Positions 10,976 to 14,447 of a stretch of DNA of 64,000 nucleotides are shown here, piece by piece. A model generated the notes under the pieces. That model was not told the DNA's origin and ran no database searches. It worked only from the letters and a program-made list of their open reading frames with translations. The number at the start of each line of letters is the position of its first letter. The stretch's first letter is position 1. Source of the DNA: Minisyncoccota bacterium (GTDB lineage: Bacteria > Patescibacteriota > Minisyncoccia > Phycocordibacterales > UBA2100); the NCBI GenBank assembly GCA_035500505.1, contig DATJXE010000003.1, positions 6,921 through 70,920 on the forward strand, given 5' to 3'. The translations under genes and the position numbers were made by a program.

Positions 10976-12541
10976 TCATTCCGTCTTATCTTCAACGATG
11001 TCCCACTCGCCCTTTTTGAAGTGCCCGAACGCGAGGGTCGCCGCGCCCGCCGCAAGCGCGAGCGCGAAGACGCCGAGCCACCAGAGGTGGTTGGAGACGG
11101 GCGCGGACGCGGCGGCCGTTTGCGTGAACGCCGGAGCGTCGGTGGTGAGGAGCGAGCTTGTGGCTTGCGCGCTGTCGGCATCGGACCCTTCCGGATCCGG
11201 CTCAACGGAGAGGTCTTGCCCCGCGAGAACCTCGGGCTCTTTATCGGCAGCCTTCGGTGGAGGTGTGGGCGCGGCCTCGGTCATGCTCGGAGTGGTTTCT
11301 TGCGGCTGCGCCTGTTGAGCCGTACTCGACGCGGAGCTTCCGCCTATTCCGAGTGCCACGGCGCCGTTCGGATATTCGAGCAACGTCGAGGATGACGCGC
11401 GGAAGGAGAGCGTTTGCGCGGAAATGTTCATCGACGAGCCGGAAAGTATCTCCGAATGCTCCGGCAGTATGAACTGCGCCGCGAACGTCGTGCCGTTTTC
11501 GCGCACGACCCAACCGGAAAGATCGAGGTCGTGTCCGGCGAGGTCCTCTATCCGAACTCCGCCGTCAGAGAGAAGCGAGAACGAGAGCGCGGCCGGCTCC
11601 GCGGTCACGGTGAGTTCGTCCGAAGCCGCGTTCTTCGCAAGGGCTATGTTCAGCGTGACGGCGTAGCGGCCGGGATAGCTGAAGTGGTGCAAAACCGCCG
11701 GTCCCTCCGCGGTCGAGCCATCGCCGAAATTCCAGGAGAAGCGGACCGTGGTCGGGTCAAGGAGGTCCTGCTGCTTGTCGTACGCGCTCGCGTCGAACTC
11801 GACGTCCGCGCCGACGATGACGGTGCGATCCTCTCCCGCGTCCGCAAACAGATTCGGTGTTGGCGGTGGCACGTAGGACGAGTTTGGTGACGGCGTATTC
11901 GACTGCGACGACTGGTCGGTCGTGGAAGCGGTCGGCTGGTCATTCATTTGCGACGTGTCGGGAGTGTCGGCCGGCGGCGCGACATATGGAGTTATGGAGT
12001 TCGCCTGCCCCGGCGTCGGAAGCGCCGCTATCCACGAGCCGTCGGCCTGGCGCTGCAAACTCGAACCGTCGTCGTTACCTCCTTGCGCACTTGTGTAGGA
12101 AACGCTGTCGACGGTCGTACCGGTGCCATCGAGGAGAGAAAGTGTGGCGCCGGTGTTGTTGAGCGATATCGAGGCTTTGGCGACCGAATACGCGCCGCTT
12201 GCCCCGCCACCGGCAGAGCCCGCGTATTCGCCGGAAATGAATTCGTTCGGGTCGCTTGCGATCACCAGGTAGCCGCCCGCGGGTATCGTGAGCGAGCCGC
12301 GTCCGGTCCCGCCAGCCGGATCGGTGATCGTATGATTCGAGCTGTCGCTGATGCGCCAAGAGTTCTTTCCGCTTCCCCCGACCATCGTCACGTCGCTCTG
12401 ACCCTCGTTATACAACTCGATCCATTCGCGACCCGAATCGCTCCCCTTCGGGTTGTACATCACCTCGTTGATAACGACCTGCGCGAAGGCGAAGGACGGC
12501 AACGCAAAAAATATCAATCCGAAGATCGGACCCCGTTTCAT
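10976..12541 (-). CDS. secreted surface protein: signal peptide + lamin-tail domain (LTD) + PKD domain + C-terminal TM anchor
   Basis: N-terminal MKRGPIFGLIFFALPSFAFA signal. VVINEVMYNPKGSDSGREWIELYN is the LTD signature. FSWNFGDGSTAEGPAVLHHFSYPGRYAVTLNIA is PKD-like. Ser/Thr/Pro-rich linkers. C-terminal hydrophobic helix followed by a basic KKGEWD tail. Confidence 0.7.
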   Translation of the reverse strand: MKRGPIFGLIFFALPSFAFAQVVINEVMYNPKGSDSGREWIELYNEGQSDVTMVGGSGKNSWRISDSSNHTITDPAGGTGRGSLTIPAGGYLVIASDPNEFISGEYAGSAGGGASGAYSVAKASISLNNTGATLSLLDGTGTTVDSVSYTSAQGGNDDGSSLQRQADGSWIAALPTPGQANSITPYVAPPADTPDTSQMNDQPTASTTDQSSQSNTPSPNSSYVPPPTPNLFADAGEDRTVIVGADVEFDASAYDKQQDLLDPTTVRFSWNFGDGSTAEGPAVLHHFSYPGRYAVTLNIALAKNAASDELTVTAEPAALSFSLLSDGGVRIEDLAGHDLDLSGWVVRENGTTFAAQFILPEHSEILSGSSMNISAQTLSFRASSSTLLEYPNGAVALGIGGSSASSTAQQAQPQETTPSMTEAAPTPPPKAADKEPEVLAGQDLSVEPDPEGSDADSAQATSSLLTTDAPAFTQTAAASAPVSNHLWWLGVFALALAAGAATLAFGHFKKGEWDIVEDKTE

Positions 12542-12609
12542 AGGGGTCTAGTATGCAAACTGATCCTGCTGCGAAAACGCGCGGATATGTGAACAACCTG
12601 GGGCCATAT

Positions 12610-12713
12610 CCCCGCACCGCATACTTTTTGCCGTGTTCTCGGAGCGCTTGGCGCGAGAGGCAGGGAATTTTCAGCAGAAAATTACCCGACGGCAAAAAGT
12701 ATGCGGTGCGGGG
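12610..12713. repeat. perfect 24-bp inverted repeat (ccccgcaccgcatactttttgccg) flanking a 56-nt spacer that itself contains two hairpins
   Basis: Arms at 12610-12633 and 12690-12713 are exact reverse complements. Read directly from the sequence. Confidence 0.9.
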
Positions 12714-12734
12714 ATGGGGATATTGCCTAGCAAC

Positions 12735-14447
12735 CTACAATTGATTGTCGCGGTCGTCGTTCAAAACGCGCGCGAGGAACTCGGGCGATATCTCCCCATC
12801 ATTCGGCTTCGGGGCTTGCGATGCGGGAACAGCGCGCGGGGCCGGTTCCTGCGCCGGCGCAGGACGCGGCGGTTGTACATGCTGCGGAGGGCGTGGATTT
12901 GAACTATTTTTTATCGTCCTCTCACGCAGGATGTCCGCAGGAGAGCGCCGTGGCGCTCCCGCCGGTTCCGGATGCGCCGCCTGTATCGCGGCCCGAAGCG
13001 CGCTGCGCTGGTCTTCCGGATGTGGGCGAGGCGCAGGCTCGGCGCGCGGTGCCGGCTGATATGCGCCGCTTCCGCTTTGCGGACGAGGCGCGAAACTCCC
13101 GGAGGCCGGTGGACGTTTGCGCTTCTCTTCTTTGGGCGGCACGAATTCGAGTTGTCTTTTGTTGATGACCGCTTCCACATCCGCCCGTGCCCTGCCGTAG
13201 AGCGCGCGAGAGTTGCGCACAACGTCGTCGCGGTACGAAATGCGGGGCGCTTCGATGGGCGCGATGGTCTCCGCGGAGAACGGGTGCGAGCCGACGCCGT
13301 CTATCATGAGCGTGAGATAAATTTGCCCCAAGCCCAGTTCGACGAGGTCTTCCGCGGTGAAGGTCGGTTCGAACACCGTTTTCAGCACCTCCGCATCGAA
13401 GGGGCCGACCCGGAAACAGACGAGCGTGCCGACGTTGCCGAAGACCGCGTCGCGCACTTTCTCCTCCATCTGTTCTATATATTGATTGGCGAGTGTGAGC
13501 GCGAGCTTGTATTTGCGCGATTCCGAGAGGATGTCGGCGAACGCCTCGTTCATCATCGACTGGAATTCATCGACGTAGAAGTAGAAACGCGGGAGTCGCG
13601 CCATGCGCGCGGCAGATTCGTCGGCGCGCGACATCGCCGCAAGGTAGATCTTCACGGTGAGCATCGAACCCAGGAGCGACGCGTTGGTCTCGCCCATCCT
13701 GCCTTTTGAAAGGTTAACGATGAATATTTTCTTTTCGTCCATTATCTTGCGGAGGTCGAGCGAGGATTTCGGCTGTCCGACGATGTTGCGGATGAGCGGA
13801 TTCGACACGAACTGGCCGACCTTGTTCTGTATCGCCGGCGTCGCCTCCTGCGTGTAGCGGTCGGTGTACGTTTGGAATTCGACGGTCCAGAAATCCCGCA
13901 CGATGGGGTCCGTTATTTTTTCGACGACCGCGGCGCGGAACGTTTTGTTGGTTAGCATGCGGTTCACGTCGAGGAGCGTCGAACCCGGATACTCGAGAAG
14001 TGCCAGGAGCGTGTTCTGCAAGATGTACTCCATGCGGGCGCTCCACGCGTCGACCCAGATGCGCTTCAGGGCGCCCATAAGGCCGGAGACGACGAGATGG
14101 CGTTTGTCGTAACCGACGTCCTCCATCACGTTGAAACCGATGGGGTGGTCGGTGTCGAACGGAGCGAAATACACGACGTCCTTGATGCGGTCGTGCGGGA
14201 TGAAATCGAGCAATTTCTCGGCGGTCGAACCGTGCGGATCGATGAATGCCAATCCCTCGCCGTTCTGGATGTCCTGGATGGCCATGTTCTCGAGCATGGT
14301 CGATTTGCCCATGCCGGTCTTGCCGATGACATAGATGTGCTTGCCGCGGTCGTTCGCGCGAATGCCGAACATTTCGCGCTTCCCCCGCGTGTGCGTCGAG
14401 GCAAAGTAGGTCACGCGCCGGTCGTCTTCTGGATTGGAGGGCGGCAT
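12735..14447 (-). CDS. type IV secretion system coupling protein-like ATPase (VirD4/TraG/TraD family, T4SS DNA-binding-domain protein) with a Pro/Ala-rich C-terminal tail
   Basis: Walker A motif HIYVIGKTGMGKST, a Walker B-like FYFYVDEFQ, and ~570 aa. The low-complexity PAPRPxP tail is at the C-terminus. Confidence 0.65.
   Translation of the reverse strand: MPPSNPEDDRRVTYFASTHTRGKREMFGIRANDRGKHIYVIGKTGMGKSTMLENMAIQDIQNGEGLAFIDPHGSTAEKLLDFIPHDRIKDVVYFAPFDTDHPIGFNVMEDVGYDKRHLVVSGLMGALKRIWVDAWSARMEYILQNTLLALLEYPGSTLLDVNRMLTNKTFRAAVVEKITDPIVRDFWTVEFQTYTDRYTQEATPAIQNKVGQFVSNPLIRNIVGQPKSSLDLRKIMDEKKIFIVNLSKGRMGETNASLLGSMLTVKIYLAAMSRADESAARMARLPRFYFYVDEFQSMMNEAFADILSESRKYKLALTLANQYIEQMEEKVRDAVFGNVGTLVCFRVGPFDAEVLKTVFEPTFTAEDLVELGLGQIYLTLMIDGVGSHPFSAETIAPIEAPRISYRDDVVRNSRALYGRARADVEAVINKRQLEFVPPKEEKRKRPPASGSFAPRPQSGSGAYQPAPRAEPAPRPHPEDQRSALRAAIQAAHPEPAGAPRRSPADILRERTIKNSSNPRPPQHVQPPRPAPAQEPAPRAVPASQAPKPNDGEISPEFLARVLNDDRDNQL

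Follow-up and report, generated by a model that had tools for sequence, protein, structure and literature searches.

A membrane-anchorless VirD4/TrwB-like ATPase and a fast-evolving LTD/PKD surface receptor in Paceibacteria suggest a two-part device for extracellular DNA

Two neighbouring minus-strand open reading frames (ORFs) were analysed in a window of 64,000 nucleotides from a Minisyncoccota bacterium (contig DATJXE010000003.1, positions 6,921 to 70,920). The first encodes a P-loop ATPase and the next a surface protein, here called the receptor (Table 1), and both are found in the ORF list where a first-pass annotation of this DNA had placed them. That annotation had paired a coupling-type ATPase with a secreted protein carrying a lamin-tail domain (LTD) and a PKD domain, and had proposed a DNA-handling module.

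Table 1. Features of the ATPase-receptor locus (window coordinates)
Feature	Position	Strand	Basis
Soluble VirD4/TrwB-like (T4CP-type) P-loop ATPase, 570 aa	12735..14447	-	ORF and Pfam
Walker A GKTGMGKST, aa 42-50	14298..14324	-	sequence reading; alignment to TrwB P-loop
Walker B FYFYVDE, aa 288-294	13566..13586	-	alignment to TrwB 'LWLFIDE' segment
Pro/Ala/Arg-rich ATPase linker, aa ~437-550	12798..13139	-	composition; non-conserved; low pLDDT
ATPase C-terminal peptide GEISPEFLARVLN, motif GE[VI]SxExLxxVLxG	12759..12797	-	ortholog conservation
Perfect inverted repeat, 27-nt arms, 54-nt loop	12608..12715	.	ATPase-receptor spacer
Type-I membrane surface receptor, 521 aa	10976..12541	-	ORF, Pfam, hydrophobicity, AF2 model
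Receptor signal peptide, aa 1-20, ...SFAFA, putative cleavage before Q	12482..12541	-	hydrophobic N-terminus; cleavage site inferred
Receptor distal head (LTD), aa 22-173	12023..12478	-	Pfam
Receptor PKD domain, aa 231-315	11597..11851	-	Pfam PKD_4
Receptor third beta-sandwich, divergent second LTD, membrane-proximal, aa 316-400	11342..11596	-	pLDDT, ortholog matches
Receptor C-terminal TM helix, aa ~486-508	11018..11086	-	hydrophobicity, orthologs, AF2 model
Receptor cytoplasmic tail KKGEWDIVEDKTE, motif K[KR]EWDI[IV]EE	10979..11017	-	ortholog conservation
Promoter-like TTGCCT-18-TATACT upstream of ATPase	14456..14485	-	consensus match only

The ATPase scores above the Pfam gathering thresholds of three T4CP families, TrwB_AAD_bind (E 1.1e-7, 31.5 bits; cut-off 20.5), TraG-D_C (E 5e-5, 23.7 bits; cut-off 22) and, marginally, T4SS-DNA_transf (E 2.8e-4, 20.3 bits; cut-off 20.1), in agreement with the coupling-protein assignment first made, and TrwB is its top PDB sequence match. 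NCBIfam gives partial matches only (TraD, CD1115 VirD4-like and CedD), far under the family cut-offs, and the Pfam profile FtsK_SpoIIIE is not matched (12.6 bits; cut-off 24). The core (aa 10-420) is near-invariant among 72 orthologs and 41 database homologs, and the alignment of the latter shows both Walker motifs (G42-T50 and F288-E294) to be intact, with Walker A and residues D293 and E294 of Walker B invariant. At ~70% core identity, against values down to 44-57% for RsmI, the epimerase and GT4, the ATPase is the most conserved gene of its housekeeping block, and its homologs are indeed widespread in CPR bacteria (>8000 matches at 90% clustering; 5,706 clusters at 50% identity, E<=1e-30). 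Its predicted structure is poor (pLDDT 58). No 19-aa window exceeds a Kyte-Doolittle value of 1.5, hence no TM segment is recognised. Judged from sequence, the protein is best explained as an ATP-hydrolysing cytoplasmic motor of the VirD4/TrwB (T4CP) branch of FtsK-HerA that probably lost its N-terminal membrane anchor.

T4CPs without a TMD are a recognised subfamily relying on small membrane partners (PMC7434980), and the ATPase, having no hydrophobic segment, would therefore need such a partner as well. The sole other small membrane ORF nearby goes with RsmI, which it adjoins in 36 of 46 loci, and not with the ATPase (9 of 46). TraJ of pIP501, whose membrane partner is TraI, likewise has a VirD4/TrwB-type nucleotide-binding domain with both Walker motifs, lacks an N-terminal TM and presumably depends on a membrane protein encoded by another gene. 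Unlike TraJ, the ATPase is not encoded on a plasmid or ICE and has no relaxase or MPF genes adjacent; its candidate partner is a large downstream-encoded surface receptor rather than a small multi-pass protein, and it carries a disordered tether of 110 aa with a conserved terminal peptide. Its sequence match to the T4CP profiles is also marginal.

This tether is the long Pro/Ala-rich tail already noticed in the first pass. Its sequence and length vary among orthologs and it is predicted to be disordered, but GE(V/I)SxExLxxVLxG is kept at the very end of the otherwise variable tails, and distant short-form representatives have the peptide as EVPEDxLxxiL. The peptide is also retained where the receptor is absent or tail-less, so the receptor tail does not explain it, and the clade-wise co-variation of the terminal motifs of the two proteins can be explained by shared phylogeny. 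The F-plasmid T4CP TraD ends in a disordered extension that binds the relaxosome protein TraM through its very C-terminus. The succession of core, long variable tether and short conserved terminal peptide is common to both ATPases, but TraD is plasmid-borne with an N-terminal TM domain, and its terminal motif is unrelated.

In the receptor, strong Pfam matches to LTD (E 2.4e-22, aa 18-150) and PKD_4 (E 3.1e-14, aa 233-312) confirm the two domains first named, and the signal-like hydrophobic N-terminus, which has equivalents in orthologs, and the C-terminal TM anchor are likewise present. The full order is signal peptide, LTD, linker, PKD, second divergent LTD, linker, TM helix and cytoplasmic tail. 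The AF2 model (pLDDT 77) contains three confident beta-sandwich domains and retrieves PKD and Ig-like matches in Foldseek. The PKD domain (pLDDT >94) has an invariant WxFGDG motif and the third sandwich (pLDDT 95-98) a conserved LDLSxW motif, with weak LTD matches at this position in orthologs (E 5e-7 to 8e-3), and a WW(L/F)G motif is conserved just before the TM helix. The tail had been called basic, but KKGEWDIVEDKTE has a net charge of -2, with two lysines followed by an acidic motif that most orthologs conserve (K[KR]EWDI[IV]EE). A scan of 5,364 ORFs from related loci found 32 that combine a TM helix with the tail motif, and all 32 belong to the receptor family. Because the tail is conserved and exclusive to the family despite a fast-evolving ectodomain (24-69% identity), it implies a cytoplasmic partner. 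The ectodomain is strongly acidic (pI ~4.2). The LTD head has a net charge of -9 and a pI of 4.2 (family median 4.3), and the HhH heads of orthologs have pI values of 4.1-6.0; in this the heads differ from the classical basic ComEA.

The distal head is exchanged among orthologs. The same slot holds an LTD in 52 of 65 cases and a ComEA-type HHH_3 domain in 11 (best E 2e-21), and a third head type in orthologous loci is a domain without Pfam match. The best 120 matches of the chassis profile comprise ~71 LTD, 15 HhH and ~34 unannotated heads; heads of the nuclease, carbohydrate-binding or peptidoglycan-binding kind are absent from them. JGI labels several HhH-headed relatives 'competence protein ComEA'. 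This swap, which is new to the present analysis, favours the DNA idea of the first-pass annotation. LTD and duplicate HhH also alternate in secreted DNases, where they were judged 'analogous in function' (PMC4486849). Nucleases of the ExeM/NucH/Xds type (DNase I family with LTD, PKD or HhH) have in common with the receptor family the domain vocabulary, the LTD/HhH interchange and the association with the cell envelope, but no nuclease domain was found in the window receptor or in its best 120 chassis relatives. ComEA is similarly membrane-anchored and extracytoplasmic, and bona fide HHH_3 heads link it to part of the family. The window receptor differs from it in having an LTD head, a Sec signal peptide with a C-terminal TM in place of an N-terminal anchor, a PKD and LTD-like chassis, a conserved cytoplasmic tail and acidic heads.

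In ~60 of the 68 Paceibacteria-type loci whose flanks are long enough, the ATPase is followed on the same strand by a receptor-family ORF. When six receptor homologs were taken as the starting point instead, each one was the gene immediately behind an ATPase. With the domains confirmed and the adjacency conserved, the first-pass reading survives on both counts. Many pairs overlap or are <=30 nt apart (41/65); overlapping genes are the norm in the source genome. The block is syntenic as a whole (MurD-MurI-MurC-RsmI-...-ATPase-receptor-epimerase-GT4), with RsmI in 36/41, GT4 in 38/40, the epimerase in 33/40 and the receptor in 34/40. Since these neighbours are as syntenic as the receptor and overlaps are normal, synteny provides no independent evidence of a functional link. 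No receptor pairing was seen in 80 loci of ATPase relatives at 35-56% identity, and eight clade members have the epimerase directly after the ATPase; the best explanation is a module specific to Paceibacteria.

The surface protein had been described as directly downstream, and it is the next gene, but the two do not abut. The 193-nt spacer contains a perfect 27-nt inverted repeat, unique in the window (0 matches expected by chance), with an RNA fold of -89.6 kcal/mol (z = -8.5). The repeat is absent from 163 related loci and hence specific to the source genome. A canonical terminator is ruled out, as no T-run follows the hairpin. Because this spacer with its very stable hairpin separates the genes, they may not be co-expressed in the source genome.

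Altogether, the pair suggests a two-part device for extracellular DNA, composed of a conserved soluble ATPase and a fast-evolving surface receptor. We tentatively propose that the receptor could be the membrane partner of the anchorless coupling-type motor in capturing or importing extracellular DNA. The swappable ligand-binding head (LTD; ComEA-type HhH or another Ig-like domain in orthologs) would be held off the membrane by disordered Ser/Thr/Pro stalks and the PKD/LTD-like chassis and would bind DNA at the cell surface. The conserved acidic-hydrophobic tail of 13 residues, predicted to be the only cytoplasmic face of the receptor, would be the membrane docking site that the motor requires, much as TMD-less T4CPs such as TraJ(pIP501) lean on a small membrane partner, and the conserved peptide ending the disordered ATPase tether may be the docking peptide. 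The motor would then drive or gate DNA through a channel encoded elsewhere, possibly ComEC or a chromosomal T4SS. We infer here the ligand, the tail-motor contact, the direction of transport and the channel.

The receptor tail, the gene order and the LTD/HhH swap count for this DNA device, while the acidic heads, the syntenic housekeeping block and the lack of nearby channel genes (no ComEC, pilus or T4SS channel genes in the window) count against it. The case for a DNA-related function is circumstantial, because the block is syntenic, the range of the pairing is limited, the ectodomain is acidic and the role of bacterial LTDs is not elucidated (PMC6085458). The first-pass proposal of a DNA module rather than a classical T4SS thus stands as to domains, adjacency and, with the HHH_3 swap, its DNA theme; it is weakened on the points just named and in its argument from missing VirB genes.

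A somewhat doubtful but serious alternative is that the two proteins have no direct functional link. The ATPase would be a housekeeping protein that translocates or remodels DNA in the cytoplasm, for instance a soluble FtsK/SftA-like helper in chromosome segregation or repair, lying by chance in a conserved envelope and division block. The receptor would be an adhesin or envelope protein whose function is tied to host attachment or to the epimerase and glycosyltransferase genes downstream. The synteny of the whole block at frequencies like those of the pair fits this explanation, as do the receptor-less relatives of the ATPase, its high core identity, which suits a core function, and the acidic ectodomain. 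Moreover, highly expressed Ig-like and PKD proteins of a cultured Paceibacteria parasite are read as host adhesins (PMC10936435), and LTDs are found together with oligosaccharide-binding domains (Mans et al. 2004, cited by PMC6085458). However, it leaves both the ComEA-type HhH heads and the conserved family-specific tail unexplained, the FtsK_SpoIIIE score is well below its cut-off, and the chassis bears no carbohydrate- or peptidoglycan-binding heads in its best 120 matches.

It is rather unlikely, in our view, that the ATPase is the dispersed T4CP of a chromosomal MPF-FATA-like T4SS, with the receptor as its surface adhesin or a mere neighbour. The T4SS is encoded elsewhere in most Patescibacteria, often near dnaA, monoderm T4SSs use adhesins, and the module would feed protein or DNA substrates into the T4SS during host contact. 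The Pfam and TrwB matches, the TraD-like tethered peptide and the TMD-less T4CPs of monoderm conjugation systems (PMC7434980) agree with this. Neither relaxase nor VirB genes, the absence of the latter having been noted in the first pass, are among the ~40 window ORFs scanned. The absence of VirB genes is weak evidence against a T4SS role, since patescibacterial T4CP homologs are usually far from virB4 and, of ten sampled genomes with the pair, seven encode VirB4. The 5,713 VirD4-like homologs of Quinonero-Coronel et al. 2025 (PMC12102498) almost certainly include the ATPase. According to that study, only 148 of these patescibacterial T4CP homologs lie near virB4; the orphans, like the ATPase, are chromosomal and distant from it, and exaptation is proposed. 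The study places T4CP homologs in 2,918 of 3,035 genomes but VirB4 in 2,417, which counts for independence from the T4SS, as do the three sampled genomes with the pair that lack VirB4, although all are draft MAGs. It also reports that in Ca. S. epibionticum the T4CP homolog is non-essential, unlike the T4SS genes. The gene is also fixed in a housekeeping block and its most conserved member, unlike mobile-element T4CPs. Our observations add the missing TM domain and C-terminal peptide of the ATPase, its fixed Mur-RsmI-GT4 position and its LTD/HhH receptor, none described in the consulted parts of that study, and, for the receptor, the second LTD, conserved tail and swappable head.

Very improbable is a role in anti-phage defence or an origin from a phage or mobile element, to which PADLOC mad8 (E 5e-16), weak HerA matches, phrog_5156 (E 2.8e-58) and distant homologs in Bacillus phage G and SPO1-like phages might point, but the phrog_5156 match covers profile positions 412-819 of 824 and is to the architecture of the long-form paralog. 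In addition, hundreds of species keep the same position in the housekeeping block, the region has an even GC content, no close relative is on any viral contig, and neither further mad genes nor integrases or phage genes are among the window ORFs nearby.

Upstream of the ATPase, the promoter-like site ends 8 nt from the start codon, with 0.9 such matches expected by chance in the scanned region; a leaderless ATPase mRNA starting from it is possible.

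The window is part of the chromosome of a member of the Paceibacteria (CPR/Patescibacteria), and both proteins treated here are identical to NCBI entries of a 'Candidatus Paceibacterota' MAG. The gene encoding the coupling-type ATPase is followed on the same strand by that of a surface protein, here called the receptor, and the Pfam matches of both (see table) bear out the domains named in a first-pass annotation, namely a coupling ATPase, a lamin-tail domain (LTD) and PKD. The profile matches suggest that the membership of the ATPase in the VirD4/TrwB-like coupling proteins (T4CPs) is real but marginal. 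Its Walker A (GKTGMGKST, aa 42-50) and Walker B (FYFYVDE, aa 288-294) motifs are invariant across homologs and align with those of TrwB, which is also the closest PDB sequence match (E 0.003, P-loop region only), while the TraD and VirD4-like models of NCBIfam gave only partial matches of 36-49 bits against cut-offs of 250-647. A shallow alignment left the AF2 model poor overall (pLDDT 58), with confidence (pLDDT 75-93) confined to a helical insert at aa 116-238; the Pfam TrwB_AAD_bind alignment covers this insert, which as modelled is compatible with the all-alpha domain of T4CPs. FtsK_SpoIIIE (PF01580) scored 12.6 bits, below its cut-off of 24 and on the P-loop only, and no FtsK-type winged-helix gamma (KOPS-binding) domain was found in the ATPase, the C-terminus of which is disordered.

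Features of the ATPase-receptor locus and of the rest of the window (nucleotide positions in the window, aa positions in the protein)
Feature	Position	Strand	Evidence
ATPase, 570 aa	12735-14447	-	ORF call
ATPase, TrwB_AAD_bind			Pfam, E 1.1e-7; 31.5 bits, cut-off 20.5
ATPase, TraG-D_C			Pfam, E 5e-5; 23.7 bits, cut-off 22
ATPase, T4SS-DNA_transf			Pfam, E 2.8e-4; 20.3 bits, cut-off 20.1
Receptor, 521 aa	10976-12541	-	ORF call; 193 nt downstream of ATPase
Receptor, signal peptide	aa 1-20		
Receptor, LTD (PF00932)	aa 18-150, after signal peptide		E 2.4e-22; 79.8 bits, cut-off 34.3
Receptor, LTD, distal head	aa 22-173		AF2: beta-sandwich
Receptor, Ser/Thr/Pro linker	aa 175-228		disordered
Receptor, PKD	aa 231-315		PKD_4, E 3.1e-14; 53.2 bits, cut-off 27
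Receptor, third beta-sandwich, divergent second LTD	aa 316-400		weak LTD matches, same position in orthologs
Receptor, second linker	aa 406-483		disordered
Receptor, TM helix	aa ~487-508		
Receptor, tail	aa 509-521		KKGEWDIVEDKTE
Inverted repeat in ATPase/receptor spacer (12542-12734)	12608-12715		27-nt perfect arms, 54-nt loop
Promoter-like TTGCCT-18-TATACT	14456-14485	-	ends 8 nt upstream of ATPase ATG
73-aa ORF, two hydrophobic segments	14524-14745	-	directly after RsmI; no Pfam match
16S rRNA	30288-31748	-	
5S rRNA	47430-47535	-	
23S rRNA	47659-50787	-	match 3,129 nt, model 2,925 positions
tRNA-like	45149-45217	+	weak Rfam match, 30.5 bits, cut-off 29; not in ARAGORN output
776-aa protein	55449-57779	-	hydrophobic N-terminus; no Pfam match
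1,151-aa protein	59481-62936	-	hydrophobic N-terminus; PG_binding_1 near N-terminus only
Cell-envelope glycan cluster	1-10100 and 40848-43549		at least five GT4 glycosyltransferases

No hydrophobic window was detected across the 570 residues of the ATPase, and the short-form representatives of its family have no hydrophobic segment either. Together with the position of Walker A at residue 42, this indicates that the ATPase is without the membrane domain that classical coupling proteins have at the N-terminus. A TMD-less subfamily of T4CPs is recognised, exemplified by TraJ/TraI of pIP501, where the motor relies on a membrane partner (PMC7434980), and hence an absent TM alone leaves T4CP membership possible. 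The small two-TM product (MTLDTVIMAFGAF...) encoded after RsmI was considered as a TraI-like anchor and rejected. Its ORF is kept in most related loci and remains with RsmI where insertions precede the ATPase, lying beside RsmI in 36 of 46 loci and beside the ATPase in nine, and this segregation argues against it as the partner.

Across 72 reference-genome orthologs and 41 homologs from databases, residues 10-420 of the ATPase are nearly invariant, and in distant comparisons this core retains about 70% identity, against 44-57% for RsmI, epimerase and GT4 and 24-35% for the receptor. Beyond residue 437 the protein is Pro/Ala/Arg-rich and variable in both length and sequence, and the conserved peptide GE(V/I)SxExLxxVLxG forms its C-terminus. 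The location of the promoter-like site upstream of the gene suggests a leaderless or near-leaderless transcript, and two short GC hairpins lie immediately upstream of that site.

The layout of the receptor was drawn from an AF2 model (pLDDT 77) and Pfam. Its PKD domain matches profiles PF18911 and PF00801 (53.2 and 44.8 bits) and, by Foldseek, the PKD domains of collagenases (target-normalised TM-scores 0.77-0.82); otherwise Foldseek returned generic PKD and Ig-like matches only. Pfam gave no HhH match in the receptor of the window. The tail had been described as basic, a description that we correct here: a KK pair is followed by an acidic-hydrophobic conserved motif, K[KR]EWDI[IV]EE. Of 5,364 ORFs scanned in related loci, 32 encode a TM helix followed by this motif, all of them (32/32) members of the receptor family, and in the window the receptor is its sole carrier.

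The ATPase-receptor pairing is real and stable at the class level. At least 1.5 kb of sequence was available downstream in 68 Paceibacteria-type loci, and in all but eight of them the next ORF on the strand of the ATPase belongs to the receptor family. The receptor homologs looked up all sit after the ATPase; no receptor-family ORF follows the ATPase in 80 metagenomic loci of relatives with 35-56% identity. The two genes overlap in 24 of 65 pairs and are at most 30 nt apart in 17. In a synteny control on the same loci, however, RsmI was present within 4 kb upstream in 36 of 41 cases, and downstream GT4, epimerase and receptor in 38, 33 and 34 of 40, respectively, and the block MurD-MurI-MurC-RsmI-...-ATPase-receptor-epimerase-GT4 is inherited as a whole. 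Since the whole block is equally syntenic and genes commonly overlap in this genome, synteny by itself is no proof of a functional link. The genes upstream of the ATPase were rejected as T4SS parts, because they differ between loci and are cell-wall related; DUF4015, L,D-transpeptidase/S11 peptidase, DKNYY and toxin-antitoxin pairs are found there.

The inverted repeat in the spacer between the two genes has a predicted RNA fold of -89.6 kcal/mol (z = -8.5), with no T-run after it. It is the single such repeat in the window and is missing from 163 related loci, in which the genes mostly overlap or are closely spaced, and it may have arisen by insertion, or serve as an attenuator or as a processing or stabilising element.

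In related genomes, 65 proteins were compared whose gene immediately follows that of the ATPase: 52 of the 65 carry LTD and 43 carry PKD, and in 11 of these 65 orthologs a ComEA-type HHH_3 domain (PF12836; best E 2e-21) replaces the N-terminal LTD. A profile of the chassis, that is, the receptor without its distal head (PKD, second LTD, TM and tail), was evaluated on its best 120 hits, of which about 71 have LTD heads, 15 HhH heads and about 34 heads of roughly 190 aa each without a Pfam match; nuclease, carbohydrate-binding or peptidoglycan-binding heads were not found among the 120. All three kinds of head share one genomic slot, and several HhH-headed proteins carry the JGI name 'competence protein ComEA'. 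ComEA bears HHH_3 on a membrane-anchored extracytoplasmic protein, whereas the receptor of the window lacks this domain and some same-locus orthologs possess it. Secreted enzymes of the DNase I family carry an LTD or else a duplicate HhH as accessory module, and PKD occurs among them as well; the LTD and HhH modules were judged non-homologous but possibly analogous in function (PMC4486849). ExeM without its LTD shows reduced DNase activity in vitro, and the role of the LTD was, according to the ExeM authors, not elucidated (PMC6085458).

The best single model, which we put forward tentatively, is that a surface DNA receptor docks an anchorless, T4CP-derived motor for the capture or import of extracellular DNA. 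The receptor head would capture extracellular DNA, the conserved family-specific tail would serve as partner for a cytoplasmic motor, and the anchorless coupling-type motor would dock on the receptor at the membrane. We prefer this model because an anchorless motor needs a membrane partner and the receptor tail a cytoplasmic one, and because HhH heads can stand in place of the LTD and the motor descends from DNA translocases. It would also fit the annotation of ComEA in only 31% of CPR genomes, for which an alternative DNA-binding mechanism was suggested; CPR bacteria presumably rely on DNA that they scavenge, yet the majority are without annotated ComEA (PMC6744442).

Several observations stand against the docking model, however. 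RsmI, GT4 and epimerase are as conserved in position as the receptor; the ectodomain is acidic (LTD net charge -9, pI 4.2; ortholog HhH heads, pI 4.1-6.0), so that simple electrostatic DNA binding is not favoured; the C-terminal peptide of the ATPase is kept even in the absence of the receptor or of its tail; and a large hairpin lies between the two genes in this genome. Co-variation of the C-terminal motifs of the two proteins was rejected as evidence of contact, since it is clade-wise and confounded by shared phylogeny, and tail-less receptors contradict it. The equal conservation of the block leaves room for a reading with no direct link, in which a housekeeping motor lies beside an adhesin or envelope protein. 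We consider this reading only slightly less likely than docking.

That the ATPase is the dispersed T4CP of a chromosomal T4SS seems unlikely. According to Quinonero-Coronel et al. 2025 (PMC12102498), 5,713 VirD4-like T4CP homologs occur in 2,918 of 3,035 genomes and VirB4 in 2,417 genomes; only 148 of the 5,713 homologs lie near virB4. Orphan VirD4-like ATPases are there attributed to about 96% of Patescibacteria genomes; exaptation is raised as a possibility, and the homolog of Ca. S. epibionticum is reported as non-essential. Of the sampled pair-carrying genomes, ten are listed in Table S1 of that study, all of them draft MAGs; seven have VirB4 and three do not. Among the approximately 40 window ORFs scanned, none is a VirB, relaxase, ComEC or pilus gene, and relaxase or VirB genes were not found in the flanks of related loci either. 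The genes of the window include those for Mur ligases, RsmI, glycosyltransferases, UDP-glucose dehydrogenases, SecDF, FtsW/RodA, MurA and ribonucleotide reductase.

The ATPase family is large, with 21,080 clusters at 50% identity (E<=1e-3), or 5,706 at E<=1e-30. In a long form, which corresponds to phrog_5156 (E 2.8e-58), a TM and a domain of about 380 aa are added at the N-terminus; this extension gave no Pfam match, and no homolog of it stands alone in the window or in the loci. In long-form relatives (metagenomic loci L099-L113; e.g. L099:7324-8010) a partner gene lies 1-31 nt downstream; its product is cytoplasmic, about 220-290 aa long and ends in an acidic motif, F(S/E)D(D/E)DL(L/V), and ATPase and product form a second ATPase-partner pairing. 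Moreover, a second short-form class (representatives P0261-P0343) ends in LxPG(Q/E)xIxF in place of EVPEDxLxxiL, and in the loci found with one member, P0282, the nearest relatives (L082-L092) have unrelated genes downstream. A distant relative, gp156 of Bacillus phage G, has 30% identity, and no viral contig contained a close one. A defence-system or phage origin is highly improbable, since the gene context speaks against it despite the matches to phrog_5156 and to the PADLOC mad8 profile (E 5e-16), the latter reflecting shared ATPase ancestry: no other mad or defence genes are nearby, and the neighbours are Mur ligases, RsmI, epimerase and GT4 enzymes.

Paceibacteria are unable to make nucleotides and for the most part have no annotated ComEA. 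Beyond the docking model, the pair may even constitute a lineage-specific DNA-acquisition device of these bacteria, in which an interchangeable-head receptor is combined with a motor exapted from DNA export to import, although we regard this as rather improbable. An LTD or ComEA-HhH head would capture extracellular or host DNA, and the KKEWDIIEE tail would signal or dock to the anchorless motor, itself derived from a conjugative coupling protein. If true, this would supply a function for the most widespread CPR 'orphan T4CP' and would be the 'alternative DNA-binding mechanism' that Meheust et al. 2019 postulated.

The ATPase is an orphan patescibacterial T4CP homolog and the receptor one of the surface proteins with LTD, PKD or ComEA domains, and both kinds were known before. 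In the searchable literature we found no account of the anchor loss, the paired terminal peptides, the interchangeable-head chassis or the class-wide pairing, and among the papers listed none has 'lamin tail domain' together with a CPR term. The locus offers a testable pairing of a core-conserved anchorless motor with a receptor whose head is LTD in some genomes and a genuine DNA-binding domain of the ComEA type in others, and the short conserved cytoplasmic peptide on each protein (KKEWDIVEDKTE and GEISPEFLARVLN) can be synthesised and tested for binding. We infer the joint function of the pair, and the 'orphan T4CP' question now has specific binding and phyletic predictions. If the link is true, a conjugation motor has been re-used with a dedicated receptor and LTD gains a defined bacterial ligand class; if not, the ATPase is a notable core gene of Paceibacteria lacking explanation.

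Elsewhere in the window, the rRNA genes are unlinked, with about 16 kb of protein-coding sequence between 16S and 23S-5S, and the 23S gene may carry an insertion, given the length of its match. The 776-aa and 1,151-aa proteins are candidate surface or host-interaction proteins. The dense glycan cluster, which also includes two UDP-glucose/GDP-mannose dehydrogenase-like genes, two epimerases and a Bac_transf sugar transferase, flanks the ATPase-receptor pair and is kept downstream of the receptor in relatives.
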